Assembly: GCA_964599955.1 (NCBI GenBank)
Contig: CAZRHO010000001.1
Span: 296 to 44,023 of the forward strand
Length of the DNA stretch: 43,728 bases
Direction: 5' to 3'
Source: an uncultured Methanosarcinales archaeon
GTDB taxonomy: Archaea > Nanobdellota > Nanobdellia > Woesearchaeales > GW2011-AR9
Each line of letters opens with the position of its first letter. The first letter of the stretch is position 1. Made by a program: the position numbers and the translations under genes. The notes under the pieces were generated by a model. That model was not told where the DNA came from. It saw nothing but the letters and a program-made list of their open reading frames with translations, and made no database searches. Shown here piece by piece: positions 6,044 to 37,222 of this stretch.

Positions 6044-6417
6044 AACTTGATTATGATTGTCCTTTCAGTAGGGTTAGGGAAATTATGCAAGAACGTGGGT
6101 GGTTACTCTTAAAATTAGATTTATTAAATCTCCAAGTTTACAAAACTAAAAGAGGCTACCACGTTTATGCTAATATTAAATCTAAACTTAAACAATTTGA
6201 AATGTTATTAATTCAATCATTGTTAGATAGTGATTTTAATAGGGAAATATTAAATTTCCTTCGTGCGCATAAAAAAGGTAATGCTGGGAACTACCTATTT
6301 GATTTTAAATCATTTTGGACTGATTATAATCTTAAAAGCCATAGGGAAAGAGTAAGAAAACCATTATTAGAAAAACAATTATTAAACATAATGAAAAATA
6401 AAGAGGTGGAAATATGA
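6028..6417 (+). CDS. hypothetical protein with AEP (primase-polymerase)-like motif spacing
   Basis: Internal ATG of track ORF 5989..6417. Contains KLDYDCP (DxD), then KTKRGYHVY about 35 aa later, then LLDSDFN about 22 aa after that. Confidence 0.45.
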   Translation: MGTEIKLDYDCPFSRVREIMQERGWLLLKLDLLNLQVYKTKRGYHVYANIKSKLKQFEMLLIQSLLDSDFNREILNFLRAHKKGNAGNYLFDFKSFWTDYNLKSHRERVRKPLLEKQLLNIMKNKEVEI

Positions 6418-7268
6418 AAACAAAAGGAGAAGAAATTAAAATGGGTAAAGAAATAAGTAATCCTAAAATAATTATTACTGGAGATGGATTTATTCCAGAA
6501 GAAATTACAAAAGCATTAAAGGATGAGTTTGAAGTTTTTAGGATTAATTCAACAACAGAACAAGACGTATGTAACTTTAATCTTAAAATGAAAGGAGTTG
6601 ATATGGTTATCCATTGTTCAGAATTGAGGGATGCACCAGACCCACATATTCTTCAATGGAATGTAATGGGTACAGCAAATATATTAAATTGGTGTGACGA
6701 AAATAAAGTGAGTAACTTTGTTTATATTTCAACTGGAGATATTTATGGAAATAAAACAGTATTCCCTTCAAATGAAACTTTTAAACCAGACCCACTTGGA
6801 ATGTACGCAACTACAAAATATATGGGAGAACTATTAGTTGAATTGTGGCATAAAACAAAAGGAATTAAAACATTAATGTTAAGACCATTTGAAGTATATG
6901 GAGATAATGAAATTCAATCAATTGTAGGTAAAATGAAAATTACACCAAACGAAGGAACGATTGAAGGAAGTCCTGATATTACAAAAGATTTTATGCACGT
7001 AAAAGATTTGGTTAGGGTTGTTAAAATGTATGCGGAAAGAAAAACATTTAACAACCTTACTTTGAATGTAGGAACAAAAAAAGAAACATCATTTGAAGAA
7101 GTTGCGAAAATGTTAGGAAAGGAGTTTTCCTATAAACCAAATAAATCAATACCAAGAAGGAGTATGGCTGATATTGAACATTTGGATTTTACAGGATTAA
7201 AACCGAAGGTGGAACTTGAAAAATGGATAGGTACAACGCAAACGGAAAAGGATACATCTACCAAATGA
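6414..7268 (+). CDS. NAD(P)-dependent epimerase/dehydratase (extended SDR)
   Basis: Contains IIITGDGFIPEE (Rossmann), YISTGDIYG, YATTKYMGE (YxxxK) and RPFEVYG. An alternative start at 6441 has AAGGAG upstream. Confidence 0.7.
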   Translation: MKTKGEEIKMGKEISNPKIIITGDGFIPEEITKALKDEFEVFRINSTTEQDVCNFNLKMKGVDMVIHCSELRDAPDPHILQWNVMGTANILNWCDENKVSNFVYISTGDIYGNKTVFPSNETFKPDPLGMYATTKYMGELLVELWHKTKGIKTLMLRPFEVYGDNEIQSIVGKMKITPNEGTIEGSPDITKDFMHVKDLVRVVKMYAERKTFNNLTLNVGTKKETSFEEVAKMLGKEFSYKPNKSIPRRSMADIEHLDFTGLKPKVELEKWIGTTQTEKDTSTK

Positions 7269-11667: not shown

Positions 11668-12273
11668 ATGGTATGTCACAACAAAACTTGTGGAGGAGAG
11701 ATTTACCCACAAAACAACGATGTAAATGTTGAATTAGGGTTATCTGGAAACGGACAATGTCCACTTCTTGGATTTGGTTATCTTGTTAGCACTAATGTTA
11801 ATGAGGAAATGGGGTTATCAGGAACGATTGATTGTCATTACGCTTCCGTGGAAGGCACAGAGCCTTCCCCTCTACCCCAAACAGATGACGAAAAAAATTA
11901 TATCCATAAAGAAATGGATTTGATTGACTTCTTAAAAGTTTTAGGTGTATCAAAAGAAAAGGCAGATAAATATTATTCATTTATGAGAAAGTTTTGGTTT
12001 GAAAATGCTTTGGTTGAACCACTATTTTATTGTGTAGAAGTAATTGATAAAGATGAAAACATTATTGGAGTATTCTATGAAGATGCTTGGCGAAGAAACA
12101 GAGTTTACCTTGGGGATGTGATTTTTAGCTTTGGAGAATCAGGAAGATTATTTTATTTAACTCACGAAATTGTCCATTATATGGATTTTCACGGAAATGG
12201 AAAAGTTACACTTTCTGAAAACGAAACAGATACAAAAGCAAGAGATATTCTAACTATTGGGGGATTATGGTAA
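11668..12273 (+). CDS. putative zinc metallopeptidase (HExxH)
   Basis: FYLTHEIVHYMDFHG contains HEIVH plus a downstream His. The N-terminus has CHNKTCGG. Driven by the conserved leaderless promoter. Confidence 0.5.
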   Translation: MVCHNKTCGGEIYPQNNDVNVELGLSGNGQCPLLGFGYLVSTNVNEEMGLSGTIDCHYASVEGTEPSPLPQTDDEKNYIHKEMDLIDFLKVLGVSKEKADKYYSFMRKFWFENALVEPLFYCVEVIDKDENIIGVFYEDAWRRNRVYLGDVIFSFGESGRLFYLTHEIVHYMDFHGNGKVTLSENETDTKARDILTIGGLW

Positions 12274-24641: not shown

Positions 24642-24845
24642 ATGGCTACTGCAAGAGGATGTAAGAAGGTAGGAAAAGGAAAACCAAAAAAACGTGGTGG
24701 ACCTTGCGGACCTAAACTTAAAAGGAAAAAATCATCTAAACGTAAATCAAAAAAATACGCAAGAGGAAAAGGTAAAGGTGGAAGTGATGATTGCCGAGAT
24801 TCAAAGGGAGAATTCATTCCAACACCAGCTTGTACAGGTCGTTAA
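24642..24845 (+). CDS. very basic K/R/G-rich protein
   Basis: Track ORF. It starts 1 nt after the upstream stop and is followed by a long T-rich terminator. Confidence 0.5.
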   Translation: MATARGCKKVGKGKPKKRGGPCGPKLKRKKSSKRKSKKYARGKGKGGSDDCRDSKGEFIPTPACTGR

Positions 24846-24885: not shown

Positions 24886-25008
24886 ATGGCGAAGAAATGT
24901 AAGAAGTATGTGTACAAACCAAGATTAGTTTGCATTAAATTTAAAAAGCCACGTTCTAAAGGTTGTAAGAAGAAGGCAGTTAGAAAAATAAGAGTTTGTA
25001 AGATTTAA
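24886..25008 (+). CDS. very basic Cys-containing peptide (40 aa)
   Basis: MAKKCKKYVYKPRLVCIKFKKPRSKGCKKKAVRKIRVCKI. Confidence 0.4.
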   Translation: MAKKCKKYVYKPRLVCIKFKKPRSKGCKKKAVRKIRVCKI

Positions 25009-25760
25009 AAGTTTTTTATTAATAGTTCTTTTACAGGTTTACATTTACCAAGAGGACCAGCTGTCATTCCATAACAGAAATCAATCTTTTTAATATTTAA
25101 TCCCTTACATTCTTTTCTAACGTCAGGGTGGTCATCATAACTAATAATTACTTTAGATTTAGTTTTTTTAGCAAAGGAACATATTTGTTTAGCAGTAACT
25201 CCTTCTTTCCTATAATTGAATGATTTTTTAACATAAGGGGGGTCTAAATAACAAACATCCTTTTTAGTTTTACAATGTTTTTTAACAACTTTCTTCCAGT
25301 CTTGATTTAATATTGTTGTTTTCTTTAACTTTTGTTTATAATCTTCACACCTATTCTTAATATTTGATAATTTTGATTTTTTATGAGAATAACCATTTTC
25401 ACAAAAACCAGCATAAGACTTTGCGTGGGAAGTTACCCATTCACAAGAACTTTTTTGTTTTTTCTTACATATATTTTTGAATTTACTTTTTGAAACATTA
25501 GCATTACACTTTTGAAGTTTCTTACAATTTACCTTACGGAATTTTTTATATTGTTTAATTAGAGGTTTGTGCATATCGTTAATAACTCTCTTTTTCGCTT
25601 TTTCTTCTCTCCAATATATACTTCCACCCCCTACAAAAGGTTCTACGTAAGTATCATATTCTTTAGGAAACTCTTTTAGAATTTTCTTGGAAACTCTTGA
25701 TTTACCACCAGGATAACTTACCATAGGGGGTAAACTTGTCTTTATTTTCTTTCCCATCAT
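25005..25760 (-). CDS. dam: DNA adenine methyltransferase, D12 (Dam, alpha) class
   Basis: YPGGKSR, VEPFVGGGSIY (motif I), INDMHKPLIKQY and LDPPYVKK (motif IV), in alpha-class order. Confidence 0.85.
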   Translation of the reverse strand: MMGKKIKTSLPPMVSYPGGKSRVSKKILKEFPKEYDTYVEPFVGGGSIYWREEKAKKRVINDMHKPLIKQYKKFRKVNCKKLQKCNANVSKSKFKNICKKKQKSSCEWVTSHAKSYAGFCENGYSHKKSKLSNIKNRCEDYKQKLKKTTILNQDWKKVVKKHCKTKKDVCYLDPPYVKKSFNYRKEGVTAKQICSFAKKTKSKVIISYDDHPDVRKECKGLNIKKIDFCYGMTAGPLGKCKPVKELLIKNF

Positions 25761-25972
25761 ATATCTGGCTTCTCCATTGATGTTTCAATCAAATAGATTG
25801 CTAGAAGGGTTGCACTAAAACTTATTGCAGAAGCCAATATAAGTGAACTCACATCTGCACTTTTCCCCTTTTTTAACCTACTACTCAATAATATTGCACC
25901 AACTCCTGAAGCCACCCCACTTAAAATAGAGAAAGTTGTAAGTGCATATTCATTAGCTATTGTTTTACCCAT
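25757..25972 (-). CDS. small membrane protein (2 TM)
   Basis: Track ORF. ATGA overlap with dam. Driven by the conserved leaderless promoter (minus-strand copy). Confidence 0.55.
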   Translation of the reverse strand: MGKTIANEYALTTFSILSGVASGVGAILLSSRLKKGKSADVSSLILASAISFSATLLAIYLIETSMEKPDI

Positions 25973-26004
25973 AGAAAAATTAGTGATTTCTTAATATATA
26001 AAAC
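25973..26004 (-). promoter_or_regulatory. conserved TATA-box leaderless promoter (copy 3, minus strand)
   Basis: The reverse complement reads GTTTTATATATTAAGAAATCACTAATTTTTCT, then ATG (25972). Confidence 0.6.
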
Positions 26005-26018
26005 TTACGATTACAAAA

Positions 26019-26049
26019 GGTTTTTATATTATTAAAACAAACATTTTTT
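26019..26049 (+). promoter_or_regulatory. TATA-box promoter of the CCA-like nucleotidyltransferase gene (divergent partner)
   Basis: GGTTTTTATATTATTAAAACAAACATTTTTT, then ATG 26050. Confidence 0.5.
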
Positions 26050-27105
26050 ATGAATCTTATACCCACAAATAAAGAAGTAAAGATAGTTCAAAGCCAAATC
26101 AATGAAATAAAATTACAATTAAACAAGATTGGTGGTTTTTCTAAAGTGGTGGCTGGTGGTTCTACTGCAAAAAACACGTTTTTATCAGGAGATACGGATA
26201 TTGATTTATTTATTATAACTAATGACATTACTCCTTTGTTTAATAAGTTAAAAAGGAAATATAAGTCAGGAAAGGATAAATCTGGAGATTTAACTATTTG
26301 GAACACAATAATTAATGGGTATGATATTGATTTTGTATTAATTAATCCATCTTATACTAAAAAGTGGTTCACATTAGACCACACAACATATTATAATAAA
26401 CATTTAACAAAGAAACAAAAAGATGATGTAGTTATATTAAAAGCATTATTTAAAACAGGAATAGGGTACGGAGCAGAGAATGGAGGTGTTACTGGTGTTG
26501 CTTTGGAAGAGGCAGTAAGGAAATTTGGAAGTGCTAAAAATGTTTGTAAAGTTATATTGAAAGAAAAATCTCCCTTTTGGGTGCAAGACCCTTCTGCTAA
26601 AAAGAAAAATATTAAAAGAAATTTGTTTGCTTCAATAAATCAAAATAAATGGGGATTGATGAATGATTCTTGTAATCATTTTATAAAAACAAATAAAGTC
26701 GTATTTAAAAGACCAACAGCAGAAAGATTTAGTTCTAAAATGGAGAAAAAAGGATGGACTTGTGTTACTAAAAAAGCAACAGGAAGAAAAGACAAGGATT
26801 TCCAAAAAGGACAATCAACTTGTTTAAAGGTATGTAGGGTTGCAAGGAGTAAAGAAAAAGAAATTAAATTATGTAAATGTGATGCTTATACTGATGGGAA
26901 AAAAACATCTGTTTGTTTTATTGATAAACCAAAAAAGCTAACAAAGAAAAGAAAGGAATGTGTTTCAAATAGAGCAAGTAATTTTCATAAAGAATCATTT
27001 AAAAAGAAAAACCCTGATTATTTTATTGATAAATCTAAAAAGTTATGTGTATTCAAAAAAAGGAAGTTTTCAGATGTAACTAAATATATAAAAGAAAAGA
27101 TTTAA
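26050..27105 (+). CDS. class-I (archaeal-type) CCA-adding-enzyme-like nucleotidyltransferase with K/C-rich C-terminal region
   Basis: GGSTAKNTFLSGDTDIDLFI (GS...DxD), YDIDFVLI (third carboxylate), DHTTYYNKHL and ILKALFKTGIGYGAENGGVTGVALEEAV parallel the head and neck of archaeal CCA enzymes. Confidence 0.68.
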   Translation: MNLIPTNKEVKIVQSQINEIKLQLNKIGGFSKVVAGGSTAKNTFLSGDTDIDLFIITNDITPLFNKLKRKYKSGKDKSGDLTIWNTIINGYDIDFVLINPSYTKKWFTLDHTTYYNKHLTKKQKDDVVILKALFKTGIGYGAENGGVTGVALEEAVRKFGSAKNVCKVILKEKSPFWVQDPSAKKKNIKRNLFASINQNKWGLMNDSCNHFIKTNKVVFKRPTAERFSSKMEKKGWTCVTKKATGRKDKDFQKGQSTCLKVCRVARSKEKEIKLCKCDAYTDGKKTSVCFIDKPKKLTKKRKECVSNRASNFHKESFKKKNPDYFIDKSKKLCVFKKRKFSDVTKYIKEKI

Positions 27106-27628: not shown

Positions 27629-27647
27629 AACCAAAACATTTATATAT
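27629..27647 (+). promoter_or_regulatory. BRE/TATA element identical to copy 2
   Basis: AACCAAAACATTTATATAT is a 19-nt exact match to 19461-19479. Here the ATG (27706) lies about 59 nt downstream. Confidence 0.5.
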
Positions 27648-27705
27648 GACAAAAACAAACTTTTTTTTACAAAACAATAAATAAATTGTGAGGTTAAGAA
27701 ATAAA

Positions 27706-28155: not shown

Positions 28156-28240
28156 GTTAACAAAAAAAAATATGACCGATTCGCAACGCTAACCCTTAAA
28201 TAAGGAAGGTAGAGATTGATTGGTCAGGAGAAGATATAAA

Positions 28241-28738
28241 ATGCCAGTAGCAGATTTACAGTTGAAGGGATATGCCCTTCAGGCAGTGCAGAAAGCACTC
28301 CAAATGATTAGCCAAAAGGCTCAAACAACTTTAGGAAGTGATTTTGAATTACGTGATATGCGACCTCAAGATTTAACTTTCACCAACCCAACCTTTAGCT
28401 TCAGTTTAACAGCAACAAGCAGTTATCACGCTATTGTTGATGACGGAACTATTGGAAACAACCGATGGATTGCTATCTACGGATTACGAACAAACCAAAC
28501 AGCAGAATTAATTTCAGGATTAAAAGTAACTGCTGGTGGTGCATTGAAAATGGATAGAAACATTGAGTGGGTATCAGCAACTCAAGATAAATCCCTTTAC
28601 TTTGACCCAGTTATCGTAGAGCAAAACACTCTGATTAAGATTGAAGGTTACAACGTAGGAACAACCACCGATACAGGTTACGTTTTAGTTTTCTTGGGAA
28701 TTGTAGCAGAGAAGAAAGGACAAGTTCTTGCACCATAA
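28241..28738 (+). CDS. beta-rich putative virion structural protein (capsid candidate)
   Basis: Internal ATG of track ORF 28220..28738, with CAGGAG upstream. Visibly less AT-rich codon usage than neighbours. A long oligo-T terminator lies downstream. Confidence 0.45.
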   Translation: MPVADLQLKGYALQAVQKALQMISQKAQTTLGSDFELRDMRPQDLTFTNPTFSFSLTATSSYHAIVDDGTIGNNRWIAIYGLRTNQTAELISGLKVTAGGALKMDRNIEWVSATQDKSLYFDPVIVEQNTLIKIEGYNVGTTTDTGYVLVFLGIVAEKKGQVLAP

Positions 28739-28748
28739 GTGCATTAAC

Positions 28749-28773
28749 TTTTTTTTTATTTTTTTATTTTTTT
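28749..28773 (+). terminator. long T-rich terminator
   Basis: T9-A-T7-A-T7 after the stop at 28738. Confidence 0.5.
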
Positions 28774-28817
28774 GACCTCATTGGTCACACACACAAAAAC
28801 ATACGAGGTAACGTAAA

Positions 28818-29321
28818 ATGGGAAATTACATAGATTATGAGAAAGGTTTCGCTGTTGGAGATGTTCTTAAAGTTAGGAATTGTTTTATGCGTATTAAAGG
28901 CAAAGACAGCATAAGAATTTACAAGGACTTTGATTCAACAGCGACAGGGGTTACAAGTTCAGATACTTCAATTGACGAACTTAATCCAAAATATGGTACA
29001 GAAATATACCAAATAGTTCAAGTAGTACCTTCACACAATGTTCAAGTGTTTGTTAAACAACCAGCTTCAACATTAAGATGGGGAACAAATCTTGCACCTT
29101 CTATTGGATTTGTATCTGATAGAATTAGTTCTTATGATGGTGGAGAAACAAATAACATCTTCATAACAAACTACCAACAACCAGTTCTTCAAGTTAAAAA
29201 TACAACTTTGAAAACTATTTCAGCACCAAGAGTATTCTTTTTCGGTTGGAAATACCAAATTGAAGAATTAAAAGATTATTCAGGAGCGTACACACCAGTT
29301 CAGTACGGAGGGTTTGATTAA
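28818..29321 (+). CDS. beta-rich putative virion structural protein
   Basis: Track ORF with GAGGT upstream. The sequence alternates hydrophobic and polar residues. Confidence 0.45.
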   Translation: MGNYIDYEKGFAVGDVLKVRNCFMRIKGKDSIRIYKDFDSTATGVTSSDTSIDELNPKYGTEIYQIVQVVPSHNVQVFVKQPASTLRWGTNLAPSIGFVSDRISSYDGGETNNIFITNYQQPVLQVKNTTLKTISAPRVFFFGWKYQIEELKDYSGAYTPVQYGGFD

Positions 29322-29323
29322 AA

Positions 29324-29764
29324 ATGGGACTTAAAAAACAAATAACTTCATTTGATAGAACAGAAGAGTATGATTCAGTTTTATCAACTTGGAAAAGGAA
29401 AATTAAACCTAACAATTTAATGAACCTTACAACTGCAGTAACAACGACTACAACTGGAGATGTTTCTTTAATAACCACAGTAGTTGGTGCTAACGAAGAA
29501 GTTTACATTTATGGTGTATCATCAGCAATTGGAACATCAGGGATTGCTTTAGCAATTCAGGTAGATAGTGCAAACGTATTTACAATTAATTCAAATATGT
29601 CAAACACTTTATCAAATCCAGATGCACCAATTGCAGTAGTTCAAGCAAGTTCAACAATTGGTTTGGTGGTATTAGAAACAACTGTAACTGACGAAACATT
29701 CATTGTAAATTTAGTTGCAAAGATTGAACCATTACCAGCAAAAGCTGAACCACAATTAGGTTAA
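29324..29764 (+). CDS. beta-rich putative virion structural protein
   Basis: Track ORF. T/V/A/S-rich. Followed by a long oligo-T terminator. Confidence 0.45.
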   Translation: MGLKKQITSFDRTEEYDSVLSTWKRKIKPNNLMNLTTAVTTTTTGDVSLITTVVGANEEVYIYGVSSAIGTSGIALAIQVDSANVFTINSNMSNTLSNPDAPIAVVQASSTIGLVVLETTVTDETFIVNLVAKIEPLPAKAEPQLG

Positions 29765-29843: not shown

Positions 29844-29972
29844 ATGCCTCAAATAACAATAAAGTTTATTCCAGATGATTTAGATAAAAGAATTAGGATT
29901 TTTATGATTCAGGAAGATTTCTCCAGGAAAGACGAAGCAATAGTAGAGGCATTAGAGAGGTTTTTCAAATGA
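29844..29972 (+). CDS. ribbon-helix-helix (CopG/Arc-like) small regulator (42 aa)
   Basis: Read from the sequence: MPQITIKFIPDDLDKRIRIFMIQEDFSRKDEAIVEALERFFK (strand-helix-helix). A TATA box lies 26 nt upstream. ATGA overlap with the first glycosyltransferase. Confidence 0.5.
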   Translation: MPQITIKFIPDDLDKRIRIFMIQEDFSRKDEAIVEALERFFK

Positions 29973-31123
29973 CAAATGTAATGATATTAGGTGTAAGCCC
30001 GAACTTTTCAACAGGAATGAGTAAAATATCTAAATATTTATGGGAAGGATTAACCAAATATGAAGATTTGAATGTATATATGGTAGGGTTACAAACATTA
30101 GGTAGGCAAGAAAATAAAATGTTATTACCAGTTGATATTGATTCTTCTGGTGGGGAAAGTGTCCTTGAATGTTATATGAAAAATTATAAGATAGATGTTT
30201 TGATTACGTTATTAGATACCTATATGGATGCGTATCAATACATTCCAGAACTTGTAAAAAGAATGGGTGTTAAATGGATTTGTCATTGTAATATTAATAC
30301 TAATCCTGTTTTTCAAAGACTTTATCAAACAATCAAAACAGCAGACCATTTAATTGCACAGACAGAATTTGGAAAAGGATTATTAGACAAATTAAAATTA
30401 AATAACAATTCTGTAATTTATCACGGAGTTAATACTAAAGAATTTTATCCTAAGGCAGTTGAAAGATTAAAAGAATTTACTTTTATTGCAGTAGGAACAA
30501 ATAAGCCTGAACAAAAGAATTGGATGGGATTATTAAAATCATTTAGATATTTAATTCACAATTTAGGGGTAAAAGACGTTCATTTAAAGATAGTTAGTAA
30601 TCCTACTGAACCAGGGGGAATGGATTTTGGTCTTGCTATTGCTCAAGCAAACTTAACGGAATATGTTACAATCATTCCAACAATTAGAGATTTAGGTTTT
30701 ATGGAAAATTTAATGGGGGAATTGTATAATTCTTCTGATTGTTATGTTTCTGCTTCATTTGGAGAAGGATTTGGTTTATGTCAAGCAGAATGTTATGCGT
30801 GTGGAGTTCCATCAGTAGTTAGTGGGTTTAGTGCTATGGGGGAATTAGTTGATGATAGTAAATCTGGTTATAAATCTGAATACGAATTATATCCTCTTGT
30901 TAAATTAATTGCTGAACAAGGTATTCCTAATACTATTGATTTTGCAGAGAAAATGAAAAAGATTAAGGAACTTCCAAAAGAAGAATATGAAAAACTTTCT
31001 TTAAATGGTGTTGAGTGGGCTAATAAGAATACGTGGGAAAAGATTATTCCTAAATGGTACGACGTAATTAAGAAAGTTGATGTTACAAAAAACGATTATG
31101 AAACAGGGGAGATTGGAATATGA
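29969..31123 (+). CDS. glycosyltransferase, GT-B fold (GT4/GT1-like)
   Basis: SASFGEGFGLCQAECYACGVPSVVS (E-x7-E region). Confidence 0.8.
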   Translation: MTNVMILGVSPNFSTGMSKISKYLWEGLTKYEDLNVYMVGLQTLGRQENKMLLPVDIDSSGGESVLECYMKNYKIDVLITLLDTYMDAYQYIPELVKRMGVKWICHCNINTNPVFQRLYQTIKTADHLIAQTEFGKGLLDKLKLNNNSVIYHGVNTKEFYPKAVERLKEFTFIAVGTNKPEQKNWMGLLKSFRYLIHNLGVKDVHLKIVSNPTEPGGMDFGLAIAQANLTEYVTIIPTIRDLGFMENLMGELYNSSDCYVSASFGEGFGLCQAECYACGVPSVVSGFSAMGELVDDSKSGYKSEYELYPLVKLIAEQGIPNTIDFAEKMKKIKELPKEEYEKLSLNGVEWANKNTWEKIIPKWYDVIKKVDVTKNDYETGEIGI

Positions 31124-31491
31124 GATTTATAACATTGAGATTAAAGTATTGTTGGTGGAAATCAAAAAGGTTACGAAAGAAGTATTGTCATAAAGGAATA
31201 CATAAAGTAGTTTATTCAAGCCACATTTTTAGTGGAACTAATATGAAAACAAAGAAATTTAAATTTTTATCTTGTCAATTTTGTGAATATAAGTTTTTTG
31301 TCAAAGAAACTCAAAGAAAACAATACAAAAAATACTCTACTAAGACTAAAGAAGGATTCTCTGCGTTGTTAAAATCTCTTTCGTTGGAAAAACCGAAGCA
31401 AACAGTACCTTCGGTTGGGATTAAAGCAAAGAAGCTTCGGTCAGTTAGTAAACGTATTAAAAAAGATATTGAAAAGGAAATTAAAGAATGA
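31120..31491 (+). CDS. basic hypothetical protein
   Basis: Track ORF with ATGA overlaps on both sides. K-rich. Contains CHKGIH ... CQFCEY. Confidence 0.5.
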   Translation: MRFITLRLKYCWWKSKRLRKKYCHKGIHKVVYSSHIFSGTNMKTKKFKFLSCQFCEYKFFVKETQRKQYKKYSTKTKEGFSALLKSLSLEKPKQTVPSVGIKAKKLRSVSKRIKKDIEKEIKE

Positions 31492-32516
31492 AGTTAGCAA
31501 TCATAGTGGGGGAAAGACCAGCATTTATTCGGTTAGTTCCTACTATAAGAAAATGTAAGAAATATTTTGATACAACTGTTATATGGACAGACCAAAACTT
31601 TGATAAATCCTTATCAACCCAATTCTTTGATGAGTTTAATATTAAGCCAGACGTATTCTTAAAAACCGATAGAAAGGTAGGAATAGATTATATGGGTGCT
31701 GTAATGCCTTTAATTAGTTCCAGTTTGAAAGATATTGACCCTGACTGCGTGTTAGTACTCGGAGACACGAACGCTTCATTCACGGCAGTTTATGTAGCTA
31801 AACGGATGGGATATAAAGTTTTTCATTTAGAAGCTGGGAATAGATGTTATGACCCTGATAGAGTTCCTGAAGAAGTTAACAGATATTGTATTGATAGTAT
31901 TTCCGATTGGCATTTATGTTATACTCAAAGGGCAAGAGAACAATTATTGTTAGAAGGAAAGAAACCAGAAAGAGTAATTGTGGTGGGAAACCCTTTGGTT
32001 GAGATGGTTAGGGCTTACGAAACAGACGAAATATATAGGCAAAACTATTTTTTAGTTACATTACATAGGAAAGAAAACATTAATGACGAAAAAAGATTGG
32101 AAGCAATATTTGATGTTCTTGAGCGTTTACCTCACAAAGTAAATGTAAGTAAACATCCAAGTTTAGCAAATAAAGTGGCTGGTTGGAGTTTTAATGATAA
32201 TATTGAACTATTTACTCCATCTAATTTTACAGATTTCCTTAAATTAGAAAAAAGTGCAGTTTGTATAATAACTGATAGTGGTGGTGTTCCAGAAGAAGCT
32301 CATTTGTTAGGAATACCTTGTGTTCTATTAAGATATAGTACAGAACGACCAGAATTGTTAGAAAGTAATAATATGGTTGTTTGTTCAAGACCCGAAGATT
32401 TAAACGATGCAATTCAGATAGCAATAGGAGAAAATAGTCGTAAAGTAAGTATTCCAGAATATCATCAATCAGTTTCAAGCAACATAGTAAAAATATTAAT
32501 GAGGTATAAGGATTGA
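31488..32516 (+). CDS. UDP-N-acetylglucosamine 2-epimerase family protein
   Basis: LGDTNASF, FHLEAGNRCYD, PEEVNRYCIDSISD, LHRKEN and ITDSGGVPEEAHLLGIPCVLLRYSTERPE. Confidence 0.85.
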   Translation: MKLAIIVGERPAFIRLVPTIRKCKKYFDTTVIWTDQNFDKSLSTQFFDEFNIKPDVFLKTDRKVGIDYMGAVMPLISSSLKDIDPDCVLVLGDTNASFTAVYVAKRMGYKVFHLEAGNRCYDPDRVPEEVNRYCIDSISDWHLCYTQRAREQLLLEGKKPERVIVVGNPLVEMVRAYETDEIYRQNYFLVTLHRKENINDEKRLEAIFDVLERLPHKVNVSKHPSLANKVAGWSFNDNIELFTPSNFTDFLKLEKSAVCIITDSGGVPEEAHLLGIPCVLLRYSTERPELLESNNMVVCSRPEDLNDAIQIAIGENSRKVSIPEYHQSVSSNIVKILMRYKD

Positions 32517-32578
32517 ACCCACAGATAATAGAGTAACAGAGGAATATTGTGAGTGGATTAATCAATTCGGTTAAAAAA

Positions 32579-32974
32579 ATGACATATATAAATAAAACAG
32601 ACGATAGGGGGAATTTCATAAATGTTCCTTTAAATAATGGAGAAAAGAGAATTTATTTGATTGAAAATCATCAGTTAAATACAATTAGGGCTTTTCACGA
32701 ACACAAAGATGAGAATTTAATTTTACATTGTTTAAGAGGCATTTGGAAAGTGGTCCACTATAATTTAGGGGAAGATAAACCAATTACTACAATTATGAAA
32801 AAGGGAGATTATTTGAGAGTAATTTCTCCAGCTGGAAATGGTTTAATGAATTTATCGGAAGATAATTTGATGATGGTTATTGCTGATTTATCTCTATCAG
32901 AAGTTGTGGAAGAAGAAGTTAAAGCACCTTGGGATAAATTTGGGGAAGAAATATGGTTAGCAAAAAGAAGGTAG
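32579..32974 (+). CDS. cupin-fold sugar-nucleotide epimerase/isomerase-like protein
   Basis: Internal ATG of track ORF 32549..32974 (which starts at a GTG). TDDRGNFINV and IRAFHEHK...LRGIWKV resemble the DxRGxF / RG-H motifs of RmlC or ketoisomerase cupins. Confidence 0.45.
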   Translation: MTYINKTDDRGNFINVPLNNGEKRIYLIENHQLNTIRAFHEHKDENLILHCLRGIWKVVHYNLGEDKPITTIMKKGDYLRVISPAGNGLMNLSEDNLMMVIADLSLSEVVEEEVKAPWDKFGEEIWLAKRR

Positions 32975-33921
32975 TTGTCACAGGAAGTGCAGGGTACATT
33001 GGCTCTTGGGTAGTTGAATTACTTTTAGATAAAGGGTACTTTGTTATAGGTGTGGATAATTTCCTTGTGGGAGATGATACTCACAAAAAATTTAGAGATA
33101 ACGAAGATTTTGTTGAAATAGTAGGGGATATATCAGACGAAGCAACTTGGTTACGTGCGTTTAAGTATAAACCACAATATGTTATCAATTTGGCTGGTAT
33201 CGTTGGAGACCCAGCTTGTTTAAACGATTTAAAGCGTTCATTTAAAGTCAACGCAGAAGCTTCTGAAATTGGTGCAAGGGTTGCTAATGTGTATAATGTA
33301 AAGAAATTTATTCACGCTTCAACTTGTTCAATATACGGAAATCAAAAAGGTGTATTAGATGAGAAATCTCCACAAACTCCAGTAGATTTTTATGGACAAA
33401 CAAAATTATCTGCAGAAAGGTTAGTGGAAAGACAATTACCAATAGAAACAAGAATTTTCTTAAGGTTTGGAACAGCTTACGGATTTAGTAATAGAATGAG
33501 GTTTGATTTGGTTGTTAATAGTTTAACTCGTAAAGGGTATTGGGATAAAAACTTAACAATTTTTGGAACAGGGAAACAAAGAAGACCTTTTACTCATTGT
33601 TACGATTTAGCAAGGGCTTGTGTATTCTTTGTAGAAAACGATTCTTACCTTGGTGTATTTAATGTCGTGGGAGAAAACTTTGAAATAGGGGAAATAGCTA
33701 AATTAATCAATAACGATTTAGATGATGTATCTTTAGAGAACATAGAAAAGATGGAAGATTTTAGAGATTACGAAGTAACTTCAAACGTATTAACTGCGTT
33801 AGGATTTGAATTTAAGTTTAATGTAAAAAGAGGAATACACGAAATAATCCAAAAATTCAAGAATAACGAATTGTTAGAATGTAAAGAAGATAAATATTAC
33901 AACGATAAATTGGGGGCATAA
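32953..33921 (+). CDS. NAD-dependent sugar-nucleotide epimerase/dehydratase (extended SDR)
   Basis: VVVTGSAGYIGSWV, ASTCSIYG and YGQTKLSAE (YxxxK). Confidence 0.85.
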   Translation: MVSKKKVVVTGSAGYIGSWVVELLLDKGYFVIGVDNFLVGDDTHKKFRDNEDFVEIVGDISDEATWLRAFKYKPQYVINLAGIVGDPACLNDLKRSFKVNAEASEIGARVANVYNVKKFIHASTCSIYGNQKGVLDEKSPQTPVDFYGQTKLSAERLVERQLPIETRIFLRFGTAYGFSNRMRFDLVVNSLTRKGYWDKNLTIFGTGKQRRPFTHCYDLARACVFFVENDSYLGVFNVVGENFEIGEIAKLINNDLDDVSLENIEKMEDFRDYEVTSNVLTALGFEFKFNVKRGIHEIIQKFKNNELLECKEDKYYNDKLGA

Positions 33922-33925
33922 AAAA

Positions 33926-34144
33926 ATGGAAGAAAAAGAAAAACAAACTCCTTTAGATATGGAGTTTGCAAATAATTTATTTACAATGATGAATAGTTAC
34001 GTTCAGAGGGGAGTTCCAATTCCAACAATAATAATGCACGTTGAGATGGCTAAATACCAAGCACTTAATGTATTTTTTAATCATAAACCAGTTCACGCAG
34101 AACCACCAAAACCAAAAACAAAAAAGAAGGGGAAGAAAAAATGA
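33926..34144 (+). CDS. hypothetical protein
   Basis: Track ORF with ATGA overlap to the next gene. Confidence 0.45.
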   Translation: MEEKEKQTPLDMEFANNLFTMMNSYVQRGVPIPTIIMHVEMAKYQALNVFFNHKPVHAEPPKPKTKKKGKKK

Positions 34145-34887
34145 AAGTAATGATAACAGGGAGTAATGGAAGATTAGGGAAAGAACTAAAGAACGTATTT
34201 CCTGATGCAATACACACTTCAAGAAATGAGTTAGATTTTAGAGATGCAATTTCTTGTGCAACATTTATTCAAGAACACAAACCAGACGTAATTCTTCATA
34301 TAGGGGCTAAAACAAGTATTCCTCCTTGCGACAAGGATAGACCAGGGGCTTGGAGTTCAAATGTAGTGGGAACAGAAAATTTAGTTAATGCTTGTTTAAT
34401 GTTTAAACCAGACGTTTACTTTGTTTATATATCAACTCCTTGTATATTTAGTGGAGAGGAAGAAGAAATTGATGAGGAAACTTTACCATTTCCAAAGAAC
34501 TTTTATGGTTTAACTAAATTAGGTGGAGAATTAATGTGTAGGAAGTTAGAACACTATTGTATAACAAGAGCAAACTTTGTAGCTTATGAGAAGTGGGAAC
34601 ATCCAAAAGCCTTTTCAGATAGGTTTAGTAATTATTTGTTTGCTCACGATTTAGCTTTGGCTTACAAAGATATTGTTAACCAAAAACCTGTTGGAGTAAT
34701 TCATTTAGTAGGGGATAAAAAATTATCTATGCACGACTTGGCTCATTTGTGTCCTGATAGCGACCACGTTAAAGAATACACATTAGAGGAGTATTACCAA
34801 GACAACCCTAACAAAGGTAAACTAACAAAGAATATGATGTTAGTATCAAAAAGATGGAGAACGTATGAAATTACAACCAAAGATTAG
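34141..34887 (+). CDS. RmlD-like (dTDP-4-dehydrorhamnose reductase family) SDR reductase
   Basis: MKVMITGSNGRLGKEL and YGLTKLGGE. At 248 aa it is short for the family. Confidence 0.65.
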   Translation: MKVMITGSNGRLGKELKNVFPDAIHTSRNELDFRDAISCATFIQEHKPDVILHIGAKTSIPPCDKDRPGAWSSNVVGTENLVNACLMFKPDVYFVYISTPCIFSGEEEEIDEETLPFPKNFYGLTKLGGELMCRKLEHYCITRANFVAYEKWEHPKAFSDRFSNYLFAHDLALAYKDIVNQKPVGVIHLVGDKKLSMHDLAHLCPDSDHVKEYTLEEYYQDNPNKGKLTKNMMLVSKRWRTYEITTKD

Positions 34888-35569
34888 TGTGATTATTCCT
34901 TGTTACAATGCGTATAAGTGGATTGATTTTGCAGTTAATTCTGCTATGAATCAATTATATCCCCCACACGAAATAATAATTGTAAATGATGGAAGTAGGG
35001 ATGGAACTACAAAGAAGTTAGAAAAGATTAATCAAAGGGATGATAGGATTAAAGTTTTCCATAACGACAAGAACAGGGGGATTGGTTACACTTTAAATCA
35101 AGGAATAAAAAATATGACAGGAGATGTATTCTGTTGGTTAAGTGCTGATGATGAGTGGCTTCCAAATAAATTAAGGGAACAAGTAAAGGCATATAACGAA
35201 AATCAAGATTGGGTATTATATACCGATTGGAATTTTATTAATGAAAAAGGAGAAGTTAAAGGAACTCAAAAATGTTTTCGTGGAAATCAAGAAGAATTTA
35301 GAATGTTATCTTTAAGAACTTGTACAATAAATTTTTCATCAATATTTATTCCAAAACATATTTTAGATGATGTTGGTTTATTTACAGAGGATTTACGTTT
35401 TGGAGAAGATTACCAATGGTTATTAAGAGCAATTCTAAAAAATGTAGAATTTAAGTTAATTGGAGAAACGCTTGTTAATTATAGAAACCATAAAGATATG
35501 TTAACAAACGAAGTAATAAATCAAACGGGTGATATGAATGAAAGAATCAGAAAAAGTCTTGGTATTTAA
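34865..35569 (+). CDS. glycosyltransferase family 2
   Basis: ISVIIPCYNAYKWI...IIIVNDGSRDGT...WLSADDEW (DxD-type). Confidence 0.85.
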   Translation: MKLQPKISVIIPCYNAYKWIDFAVNSAMNQLYPPHEIIIVNDGSRDGTTKKLEKINQRDDRIKVFHNDKNRGIGYTLNQGIKNMTGDVFCWLSADDEWLPNKLREQVKAYNENQDWVLYTDWNFINEKGEVKGTQKCFRGNQEEFRMLSLRTCTINFSSIFIPKHILDDVGLFTEDLRFGEDYQWLLRAILKNVEFKLIGETLVNYRNHKDMLTNEVINQTGDMNERIRKSLGI

Positions 35570-35581
35570 AGAGGTATATAA

Positions 35582-37222
35582 ATGGTAGAAAAACATAATT
35601 TTGTATTTGAAAAGGAATATTGGGAAATTGAAGGAAAAGAAAATCCAATTGATGCAATCTGTAAAGGTTTTAGTGTTGAAGATTTTAAAAATAAGAAAGA
35701 ATCTTTAATCTTTCATCTTGAACCAGAATTTAACAAAGACCAAACATTTCTTGATTTAGGTTGTGGGATTGGAAGAGTTGCAAGGTGGGTTGCACCTAAT
35801 ATAAAAGAATATCACGGCGTAGATATATCAAGCACAATGATTGAAAACGCTAAAGAATACAATAAAGATTTTGATAACGTAAATTTTCATCAAGTATCTT
35901 CTTGCGATTTAAAATTGTTTGAAGATAATAAATTTGACGTAATTTTATCAGAATTAGTTTTTATACATTTAACACCAGAAGAGCAAAAGAAATATTTAGT
36001 AGAGATTAATCGTGTTTTAAAAAAAGATGGAACTTTATTGATTGAGATTCCTAAAGAGGAATATTACATTAATGGTTTTTCAATTGATGAGATAAAATTA
36101 AACCTTCCAAACTTTGAATGGGCGTTTAAAAAATCAAACAACATTTATACTTATCAGATAAAAGCAAAAAAAAGGACAGACAAATCAATCCCTTTAAACG
36201 AAAACATTTTAGTTTTAAATTTTAACAATAGTCAAGAATATTTAGGGGGTTCTGAATTAGTTACGGAACGTTTGGCGAATGTTTTTAAAACAAAAGTTAT
36301 ATCTGCAAAAACTTCTGCTCAACTTATGGGTTACGAATATAATACCTATTATAAATATTCAATAATTGACAGATGTATCATATTTGATAAGTATTTAGAA
36401 CAATACGAAAAAATAAATAAAGCAAATGTTATAATTAGGAATAGTTGTTGTGGTGCTTTTTATGAATCAAAAACTCCGATGATTACTTTATATCAAGAGC
36501 CTTCTTCTTTGATTAACGAATTTATGTTATCTCAAAATATAACTGGGATGGATTTTGATTTTAGTTATCTCTATCCTTTACTTCAAAGGGAATGTTCAAA
36601 AAATAGTTTTAACGTAGCAAATAGTAACTTTATGAAACATTATATGGATAAGGAAGGGATAAAATGCGACAAAGTTATTCCTTTAGGGGTTAATTTAGAT
36701 TTATTCACACCGATTGATATTCCTAAACCTGAAAATTACAAAGATAAGAAGGTAGGTATTTGGGTAGGTAAACATCATCCTTTGAAATGGGGGTTTATGC
36801 CTGAACTAATTAAAAACAATCCTGACATTCATTGGATTTGTGTATTCTTTGGTGGTTCTGTAAAAATTCCACGCAAATTAAAGAACTTTGAAGTTTATGA
36901 AAACTTAACTCAAGAAGAAATGGTGGGGTTATATAATATTGCTGATTTTTGTATAAGCACTTCTCCAGTAGAAAGTTTTGGGTTTGTTCCATTGGAAGCG
37001 ATGGCTTGTGGTAAACCTGTAATTGCTTACAAAACAGGGTTTCTTTGGGATGTAGAGGACTTTCAGGGGGGGATAGTGGTAGATACCTATAAATTAGAAA
37101 GTTATCAGGAAGCCCTTAATAACTTATTTAAGAAAGAATGGACACCAAGAGAAGAAGCAAAGAAGTGGGATATTAAGAAATGGGAAGATTCTATTAAGGG
37201 AGTAGTAAAAGATTTACAATGA
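35582..37222 (+). CDS. fusion protein: class-I SAM methyltransferase (N-terminal) plus GT-B glycosyltransferase (C-terminal)
   Basis: N-terminus: FLDLGCGIGRVARWV ... LKKDGTLLIE. C-terminus: STSPVESFGFVPLEAMACGKPVIAYKTG. Confidence 0.8.
   Translation: MVEKHNFVFEKEYWEIEGKENPIDAICKGFSVEDFKNKKESLIFHLEPEFNKDQTFLDLGCGIGRVARWVAPNIKEYHGVDISSTMIENAKEYNKDFDNVNFHQVSSCDLKLFEDNKFDVILSELVFIHLTPEEQKKYLVEINRVLKKDGTLLIEIPKEEYYINGFSIDEIKLNLPNFEWAFKKSNNIYTYQIKAKKRTDKSIPLNENILVLNFNNSQEYLGGSELVTERLANVFKTKVISAKTSAQLMGYEYNTYYKYSIIDRCIIFDKYLEQYEKINKANVIIRNSCCGAFYESKTPMITLYQEPSSLINEFMLSQNITGMDFDFSYLYPLLQRECSKNSFNVANSNFMKHYMDKEGIKCDKVIPLGVNLDLFTPIDIPKPENYKDKKVGIWVGKHHPLKWGFMPELIKNNPDIHWICVFFGGSVKIPRKLKNFEVYENLTQEEMVGLYNIADFCISTSPVESFGFVPLEAMACGKPVIAYKTGFLWDVEDFQGGIVVDTYKLESYQEALNNLFKKEWTPREEAKKWDIKKWEDSIKGVVKDLQ

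Follow-up and report, generated by a model that had tools for sequence, protein, structure and literature searches.

The open reading frame (ORF) at positions 26050 to 27105 (+ strand, stop codon included) of the 43,728-nt stretch of contig CAZRHO010000001.1 analyzed here, hereafter the window, encodes a protein of 351 amino acids (aa) that, by profile comparisons and by its predicted structure, is a homolog of the class I (archaeal-type) CCA-adding enzymes. It belongs to a compact clade of such proteins encountered on archaeal mobile elements. The homology, the fold, the conserved active site, the distinctness of the clade, and the mobile-element context are established. By analogy with characterized enzymes, we propose with moderate confidence that the protein is a minimal but catalytically competent tRNA nucleotidyltransferase of class I, a stand-alone enzyme with which archaeal mobile elements would repair or mature the CCA ends of tRNAs. 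The ORF listing gave an ATG start and the same boundaries as a preliminary description of this DNA, which was made from the letters and their translations.

The class I assignment, already made in that description, was borne out by profile, alignment, and fold searches alike. The NCBIfam model TIGR03671 (archaeal cca) matched residues 3 to 350 along model positions 9 to 399 of 410 (E 5.2e-21), and the family profile matched the A. fulgidus CCA enzyme (AfCCA) with an E-value of 5e-14. In profile-profile alignments with hhalign, before which the AfCCA sequence was checked against PDB 1R89, residues 1 to 351 were aligned with AfCCA 12 to 393 at 100% probability (E 4.4e-72). At the domain level, PF01909 (Pol-beta nucleotidyltransferase head) was matched with an E-value of 2.9e-7, and PF09249 by 10 of 10 family members, although the window protein itself, at 19.6 bits, did not reach the gathering threshold of 27.

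From the family alignment, AlphaFold produced a model of high confidence along its whole length (predicted local distance difference test score (pLDDT) 93.4, predicted TM score (pTM) 0.85). When it was compared with PDB by Foldseek, the top 14 hits were all AfCCA structures (E ~1e-19, query TM score (TMq) 0.75, ~390 columns). The next families, Utp22, NF90, poly(A) polymerases (PAPs), Cid1, OAS, and CdnC, followed at E-values of 1e-8 to 1e-6, which leaves AfCCA about ten orders of magnitude ahead of every other nucleotidyltransferase (NTase) family. The structure prediction proposed in the preliminary description as a check on the likeness to archaeal CCA enzymes returned AfCCA alone at the top. 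That description had also named placement in another Pol-beta clade, such as the MNT/KNT type, as the outcome that would speak against it; MNT/KNT families were absent among the significant profile hits, and the best profile and structure placements were all class I CCA enzymes. The protein did not fit the class II CCA enzymes or bacterial PAPs either, as there was no PF01743-type hit and the body of the model is alpha/beta and not all-helical.

A residue-level map was drawn from 41 compact and 87 canonical sequences. The head (Pol-beta nucleotidyltransferase domain; residues 1-122, 26050..26415, +), delimited by PF01909 and by this map, contains G37-S38 and the putative catalytic residues D50, D52, and D94, equivalent to G46-S47, E59, D61, and D110 of AfCCA; the catalytic residues are invariant in 40-41 of the 41 compact and in all 87 canonical sequences. 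The neck (central helical domain; residues 123-220, 26416..26709, +), defined by PF09249, the alignment, and conservation, carries K131, Y140-G-A-E143, D180, R190, and N191. These residues and the T108/H111 pair of the head are conserved in both clades and correspond to K152, Y161-G-A-E, D218, R224, N225, and T130/H133 of AfCCA, respectively. Within the nucleotide pocket of the compact clade, R190, D180, K131, and Y140 do not vary, whereas the Asn at position 191 is shared by 32 of 41 sequences. R190 is the equivalent of the templating residue Arg224 of AfCCA; the roles of Arg224 in templating, of the carboxylates, of the beta-turn, and of the tail have been described previously (PMC3925840, PMC3794860).

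The N-terminal motifs read in the preliminary description were recovered as G37-S38...D50-I51-D52-L53-F54, Y91-D-I-D94-F-V, and L130-K131...Y140-G-A-E143, and two of its readings needed correction. The motif given as GIYGAE is present but reads GIGYGAE in the window protein. For the motif given as D.T..H.K.L, T108 and H111 do pair with the invariant T130 and H133 of AfCCA, but the register was off and D128 of AfCCA has no conserved counterpart. Other parts of the protein are remodelled. The neck has lost a loop of 15 residues (AfCCA 196-210) and the head several short ones, and the beta-turn, which watches the tRNA 3' end for correct CCA addition (PMC3925840), reads G-D-L-T-I-W at residues 79-84, compared with A-E-H-P-Y-V in canonical enzymes (A95-E-H-P-Y99 in AfCCA). 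The compact version forms a conserved motif of its own, G79-x-L81-x-I-W84, in which W84 is nearly invariant.

The C-terminal half, which had been described as replaced, turned out to be a diverged but clearly homologous body domain (alpha/beta, RNA recognition motif (RRM)-like, and Lys-rich; residues 221-342, 26710..27075, +). When the C-terminal half alone was submitted to hhalign, window residues 221-350 were aligned with AfCCA 261-392 at 98.9% probability (E 3.8e-17), and the reversed control failed (1.4%). PF21133, the C-terminal domain of CCA enzymes, which extends over AfCCA 274-417, was matched by 4 of 10 family members, one of which (P0010) passed the gathering cutoff. The Foldseek matches to AfCCA and the secondary structure of the model point in the same direction, the C-terminal halves are conserved among the full-length relatives in the family alignment, and the body strand containing R338-K339 is conserved as the equivalent of R380-K381 in AfCCA. 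The richness in Lys and Cys noted previously was found in the last 151 residues (24.5% Lys, 6.0% Cys with nine Cys, isoelectric point (pI) about 10), but it does not mark an unrelated replacement.

Judging from these alignments, only the distal C-terminal module is missing, and it was lost, not replaced. After the "RK" strand of the body there is only a 9-residue helix (residues 343-351, 27076..27102, +; helical in the model over 343-350), compared with 53 residues in AfCCA (hmmalign segment counts), the tail of which we take to span residues ~385-437. In 13 usable enzymes from archaeal genomes and metagenome-assembled genomes (MAGs), hmmalign counted 25-68 residues after the body: 39 in Sulfolobales (complete genome), ~59-68 in Nitrososphaerales and Aenigmarchaeota, and 25-32 in the shortest modules, those of DPANN and Methanosarcinales-bin forms. 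This distal module, or tail, anchors the elbow (T-loop) of the tRNA (PMC3925840, PMC8464048). The correction holds even if these enzymes are merely of the ordinary maturation type, the C-terminal half being a diverged body domain and no novel module.

The cysteines of the clade covary as four mutually independent pairs, one in the neck (C166/C208) and three in the body (258-277, 262-275, and 304-333); no unpaired occurrence of 262-275 or 304-333 was seen among the 41 sequences. In the model, the 166-208 pair lies on two neighbouring neck helices and the 304-333 pair on two neighbouring strands, and helix alpha1 and strand beta2 are joined by two candidate staples in antiparallel register. From covariation and the model, the four pairs are probably disulfides. 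A Cys-rich metal cluster was considered and rejected, as the cysteines covary as four separate pairs and not as one set.

In summary of the comparison with AfCCA, the window protein has the same head-neck-body architecture and fold, the same active-site and pocket residues, and a homologous body. It differs in being 86 residues shorter, with a tail of 9 residues and the 196-210 neck loop deleted, in being strongly basic (pI about 10 vs. 6.8) with four covarying Cys pairs, in its replaced beta-turn, in having V at the position of Y173 and no conserved D128, and in being encoded on a mobile element and not on a chromosome.

Full-length relatives in a large protein database formed a small family (35-44% identity, 324-393 aa). 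An exhaustive profile search returned 49 cluster representatives at E<1e-30, all of about 350-390 aa; the canonical archaeal enzymes of 390-470 aa ranked next and were aligned along the whole profile. A held-out intermediate group scored 141-198 bits on the compact profile vs. 58-80 on the canonical one. By profile scores, the compact clade is distinct and stands sharply apart from the canonical enzymes. It comprised about 56 lineages at 90% identity, and a metagenome scan contributed 66 loci. When one genome per species was searched (185,579 species), relatives were found at 52 loci, of which 51 were canonical (~25% identity; hosts in DPANN, Nitrososphaeraceae, Sulfolobales, and others) and one was of the compact type. 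The latter lay on a 90-kb contig assigned to a Thermoproteota MAG, and the element on this contig recurred on an independent metagenome contig. The window protein was found in several samples, on seven or more contigs, the longest of 49.6 kb; these environmental copies were nucleotide-identical across the gene and 3 kb on either side and were therefore uninformative for selection analysis. Neither the window protein nor AfCCA had a match in 50,697 phage/virus records.

Two members of the compact family had been automatically annotated by the Joint Genome Institute (JGI) as "tRNA nucleotidyltransferase (CCA-adding enzyme)", so that at the level of the broad family the assignment had been made before. 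The compact clade, its architecture, and its ecology appear undescribed in the literature searched, and it would represent a sizeable class I lineage on archaeal mobile elements devoid of tRNA genes.

That the gene is carried by an archaeal mobile element is well supported. The term "virus-borne" used in the preliminary description is plausible for the window element, but Pfam and PHROGs scans of ~40 window ORFs detected neither a capsid nor a terminase or portal gene. The window contains no recognizable housekeeping genes, and tblastn and PDB searches with its large ORFs returned nothing useful. More generally, the contigs that carry the clade are rich in ORFans and show no conserved cellular neighbours, the most frequent neighbour family being found in at most 6 of 55 lineages. 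No tRNA gene was detected in 73 clade loci (575 kb), compared with four in 627 kb around cellular cca genes, a weakly discriminating difference. The window itself was empty of tRNA genes when its 43.7 kb were scanned with ARAGORN, as the preliminary description had stated.

In the only relative from IMG/VR (IMGVR_UViG_3300009499_000295, 133 kb), the compact NTase gene lies ~3 kb from a homolog of the terminase large subunit. Because this terminase homolog adjoins the NTase, at least one member of the clade sits on a tailed virus. The best match of the terminase homolog (L061, 5256-6767, minus strand) was a Thermus phage TerL (2e-13), and a 157-kb contig (L089) apparently carries the same or a closely related element.

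DNA methyltransferase genes were found within 5 kb of the compact gene in 6 of the 25 lineages with enough flanking sequence, the window included. Compact NTase genes repeatedly have multi-domain orphan DNA methyltransferases in their vicinity (N6_N4_Mtase, UPF0020, and Eco57I-like; L085 13953-16667, L072 9758-12505, and L086 2081-3778), and the first of them has a LAGLIDADG endonuclease domain inserted in the middle of the protein that may be an intein or a homing-endonuclease insertion. Searches of the 73 loci with hidden Markov models also revealed, in two lineages, Csx3 ring-nuclease genes and an AAA gene directly beside the NTase (L057 8659-9966, L059 7342-8250, L104 223-1131, and L001 6659-7966). 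The NTase is flanked there by one or two Csx3 genes (PF09620, a cyclic tetra-adenylate ring-nuclease family unrelated to PF09249), and a separate P-loop protein of ~200 aa was recognized with PADLOC as the AAA portion of "Csx3-AAA", a fusion associated with type III CRISPR. This split Csx3 and AAA pair on virus-like contigs may be an anti-type-III-CRISPR module. As a functional partner of the whole clade it was rejected, being present in 2 of about 56 lineages and absent from the window.

The virus-encoded CCA enzymes that we checked (halovirus HGTV-1) or that have been described (jumbo phages) are, in contrast to the compact clade, of class II or accompanied by viral tRNA sets. They are likewise virus-carried tRNA 3'-end nucleotidyltransferases but are unrelated to the window protein outside the Pol-beta core. 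The phage enzymes have been interpreted as tRNA maturation or RNA-repair factors (PMC7824862), and HGTV-1 is cited as an archaeal virus encoding a CCA-adding enzyme alongside 36 tRNAs (PMC8651126). HGTV-1 gp127 (L130, 16909-18210) showed the class II motifs GGWVRD, DVD, and RRD and no match to class I profiles, and is thus of the bacterial/eukaryotic type although the host is an archaeon. HGTV-1 also encodes RtcB and RNA ligases together with its 36 tRNAs, whereas the window and the clade contexts are without tRNA genes. A second HGTV-1 NTase, gp242 (L129, 14543-15424, 293 aa), adjoins a TROVE (Ro-like) RNA-binding protein. Both HGTV-1 NTases were rejected as relatives, gp127 as a class II enzyme and the other as unrelated. 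Borg extrachromosomal elements of Methanoperedens have also been reported to encode CCA-adding enzymes (bioRxiv 10.1101/2024.11.05.622173). Compared by description only, Borgs are likewise archaeal and mobile or extrachromosomal, but they are huge and carry tRNAs, aminoacyl-tRNA synthetases, and ribosomal proteins.

We infer the substrate, the product, and the biological purpose of the window enzyme mainly by analogy with AfCCA. The body would dock an acceptor-stem-like RNA helix, the 3' end of which would enter the head-neck cleft; R190 and the RNA backbone would then select CTP and ATP, and the catalysis of C, C, and A addition would fall to D50, D52, and D94. With no elbow-anchoring module and with a remodelled beta-turn, the enzyme is likely to grip only the top of the acceptor arm, and it may be less selective or processive than cellular enzymes. 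Class I enzymes accept minihelices (PMC3925840), and activity may therefore survive the loss of the elbow anchor, although this loss, combined with the new beta-turn, could alter affinity, fidelity, or termination. As the gene stands alone on elements without tRNAs, host tRNAs are the likely substrates, and their CCA ends would be rebuilt or completed during infection so that these tRNAs stay chargeable. Of the roles suggested in the preliminary description, the repair of tRNA 3' ends is therefore the one that we also prefer. If active, the compact enzymes would be a natural minimal class I scaffold that could show which parts CCA specificity and termination need.

Several observations weigh against this proposal. 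The TIGR03671 score of the window protein was 74.9 bits, compared with an equivalog cutoff of 281.3, and by this threshold the protein is a homolog below equivalog status. The tail is nearly gone, as described above, and positions that hardly vary in canonical enzymes have changed: position 97, H or R in 85 of 87 canonical sequences, is L81 in 38 of 41 compact ones; Y173, Y or H in 83 of 87 canonical sequences, is V or I in the compact clade (V150 here); and D128, D in 86 of 87 canonical sequences, is variable. The head-neck-RRM layout predicted by the model resembles that of a eukaryotic PAP, and the substrate or the product could differ accordingly from those proposed. No compact-clade member with a biochemical characterization was found in the literature searched, and profile scans of the window found no RNA-repair genes (ligase, kinase, or phosphoesterase). 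Archaeal hosts already own a CCA enzyme, and the benefit of a second one is presumed. To our knowledge, no tail-cleaving defence has been described in archaea. That no capsid, terminase, or portal gene was detected in the window is a caveat for its viral nature.

The repair of tRNA 3' tails after trimming by host nucleases could make the role of the enzyme one of counter-defence, and such a purpose is an attractive hypothesis. Cas12a3 is a tail-targeting immune nuclease in bacteria. Immunity by cleavage of tRNA tails has been demonstrated, and viruses are not known to counter it (PMC12851939); Cas13 HEPN nucleases are reported to cut acceptor stems. If cleavage leaves a 3'-OH, a CCA enzyme on its own would be enough, whereas cyclic-phosphate ends would need an extra healing enzyme, and none was found in the window. 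The compact enzymes are candidates for the means by which viruses would withstand the cutting of tRNA 3' tails by immune systems. A broader version, in which the whole compact clade would serve archaeal viruses and mobile elements specifically in counter-defence, minimal, disulfide-stabilized, elbow-independent, and regenerating clipped tRNA tails, is put forward tentatively and is rather unlikely. If true, it would be the first identified viral resistance to tRNA-tail cleavage, and the recurrent proximity of anti-restriction methyltransferases and Csx3 ring nucleases would reflect anti-defence islands.

Among other explanations, it is conceivable, if rather unlikely, that the protein is an RNA 3'-tailing enzyme of altered specificity, which would act on viral transcripts or on generic hairpin or minihelix ends and add poly(A)- or poly(C,A)-like tails or single nucleotides. 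Such an activity would fit with a tail module down to 9 residues, with the replacement of the 3'-end-monitoring beta-turn and the changes at Y173 and D128, and with the lack of accompanying tRNA genes. The remaining three-domain layout is also that of PAPs, which follow Utp22 and NF90 among the fold matches (TMq about 0.5), and the architecture of AfCCA itself has been called PAP-like (PMC3925840). However, the entire nucleotide pocket, with its equivalents of Arg224, D218, and N225, is as invariant as that of true CCA enzymes, the body domain is conserved, including the RK strand, and the PAP and Cid1 matches lie ten orders of magnitude below that of AfCCA. A candidate RNA substrate was not found in the window either, as a permissive Rfam scan (E<=1) gave zero matches. 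Eukaryotic PAPs, Utp22, and NF90 share with the window protein its three-domain arrangement, in which a catalytic head and a helical centre are combined with an RRM-like domain that binds RNA, but their match is much weaker (E ~1e-8, TMq <=0.52, root-mean-square deviation 9-14 Å, no sequence-level match), and it is the CCA-enzyme pocket residues that the window protein keeps. Utp22 has been described as a derivative of class I CCA enzymes (PMC3794860).

That the gene is an ordinary host-derived housekeeping cca, on a contig that is cellular or a passive carrier, with a compactness due to genome streamlining as in DPANN, seems clearly unlikely. Short cellular forms do exist (Woesearchaeota and Nanoarchaeota, 399-405 aa, with 25-30 post-body residues), one compact gene lies on the 90-kb Thermoproteota-MAG contig, and the window revealed no viral hallmark gene. 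But the element on this MAG contig is also present on an independent metagenome contig, and the compact type accounts for only 1 of 52 hits in 185,579 species genomes and is cleanly apart from canonical enzymes in profile scores. All the contexts examined are ORFan-rich and without tRNA genes or conserved cellular neighbours, one relative adjoins a terminase, and the window is without recognizable housekeeping genes. The short DPANN enzymes, from Woesearchaeota and Nanoarchaeota MAGs (L013, L043, and L045), also have a C-terminal module reduced relative to AfCCA, but they retain three times more post-body residues than the window protein, their head and neck count 134-142 and 120-125 residues (119 and 101 in the window protein), they come from archaeal genome bins, and they match the canonical and not the compact profile.

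We consider it highly unlikely that the protein is a host-takeover or toxin-like tRNA modifier, mis-tailing the 3' ends of host tRNAs, either as a MenT-like block of aminoacylation or as a CCACCA decay tag, and thereby reprogramming or shutting off host translation. NTase toxins that extend tRNA acceptor ends, such as MenT, are known (PMC10435456, PMC11541572), the remodelled beta-turn could relax the control of termination, and AfCCA structures with CCAC and CCACC minihelices were among the fold hits. MenT, however, is a member of another NTase family, a virus depends on working tRNAs and this element carries none of its own, and the 56 lineages revealed neither an antitoxin-like partner nor a neighbour that is conserved.

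Least probable of all is the signalling nucleotidyltransferase raised in the preliminary description, considered here as a CD-NTase/OAS-like signalling or anti-signalling enzyme that would make or consume oligonucleotide messengers in connection with the Csx3 ring nuclease. In its favour are weak hits to CBASS cyclase models (PADLOC 5e-6, NCBIfam 0.003) and to OAS and CdnD in PDB, and the Csx3 and Csx3-associated AAA genes adjacent in two lineages. We rejected it: these hits span only residues about 5-73, the generic Pol-beta N-terminus, the TMq is 0.44-0.47 for CdnC/OAS (E about 1e-7 to 1e-6) vs. 0.75 for AfCCA, a conserved RNA-binding body domain is present, and the Csx3 linkage concerns 2 of about 56 lineages and is absent from the window. 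Membership of the CD-NTase/CBASS cyclases or of OAS was likewise dismissed, as there was no full-length match and the body domain is an extra conserved domain.

Upstream of the CCA-enzyme homolog, an operon is transcribed divergently (25005..25972, minus strand) and is context outside the enzyme. It comprises a 71-aa membrane protein (25757-25972, minus strand; from the ORF listing) and a Dam-type N6-adenine DNA methyltransferase (25005-25760, minus strand; PF02086 7.7e-21, TIGR00571 5.3e-26), the two ORFs overlapping by 4 nt. The divergent pairing of the gene with this dam operon across a 77-bp double-TATA region, as described previously, was found again: the spacer (25973..26049) is exactly 77 bp long and contains one TATA-like element for each flanking gene, located ~23-27 nt upstream of its own ATG. 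A positional analysis of all larger window ORFs showed that TATA-like motifs are enriched at -35 to -25. The spacer and the motif positions fit archaeal promoters with leaderless or very short-leader mRNAs.

A near-identical promoter/leader module of ~30 nt, TTTAWATATTAARAAATCACTAATTTTTCT, with the ATG directly after it, was observed upstream of at least five window genes, those starting at 11668, 19505, 25972 (minus strand), 27131, and 39772. Looser copies were present upstream of 26050 and 37378 and near 27640-27670, and operon-internal genes of the window have GGAGG-like ribosome-binding sites in place of the module. The genes preceded by TTTAWATATTAARAAATCACTAATTTTTCT seem to form a single class of leaderless archaeal transcripts under common, possibly temporal, regulation.

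Downstream of the CCA-enzyme homolog, three consecutive beta-rich ORFs (172, 167, and 146 aa; 28220-29764) occupy the segment of highest G+C content in the window and are possible jelly-roll capsid proteins. The first of them (28220-28738) has five homologs only, and its model (pLDDT 68) shows an N-terminal helix and about eight strands in a jelly-roll-like arrangement. Its best bidirectional fold match was the major capsid protein of Sulfolobus polyhedral virus 1 (SPV1), with TM scores of 0.51/0.48 and a non-significant E-value of 0.008.

A large sugar-modification cluster (29969-37222, and 6414-7268) encodes GT4/GT2 glycosyltransferases, a UDP-GlcNAc 2-epimerase, several NAD-dependent epimerases/dehydratases, an RmlD-like reductase, and a 546-aa methyltransferase-glycosyltransferase fusion. 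These genes may serve the glycosylation of virions or of the host surface. A 229-aa ORF at 506-1195 matched Amidoligase_2 (PF12224, E 4e-10), a family that occurs in phage-borne modification systems. Finally, two small ORFs (67 aa, 24642-24845; 40 aa, 24886-25008) have very basic products with many K, R, and G residues. The longer one reads MATARGCKKVGKGKPKKRGG... and was called as a gene in JGI contigs too; both may encode nucleic-acid-binding proteins.

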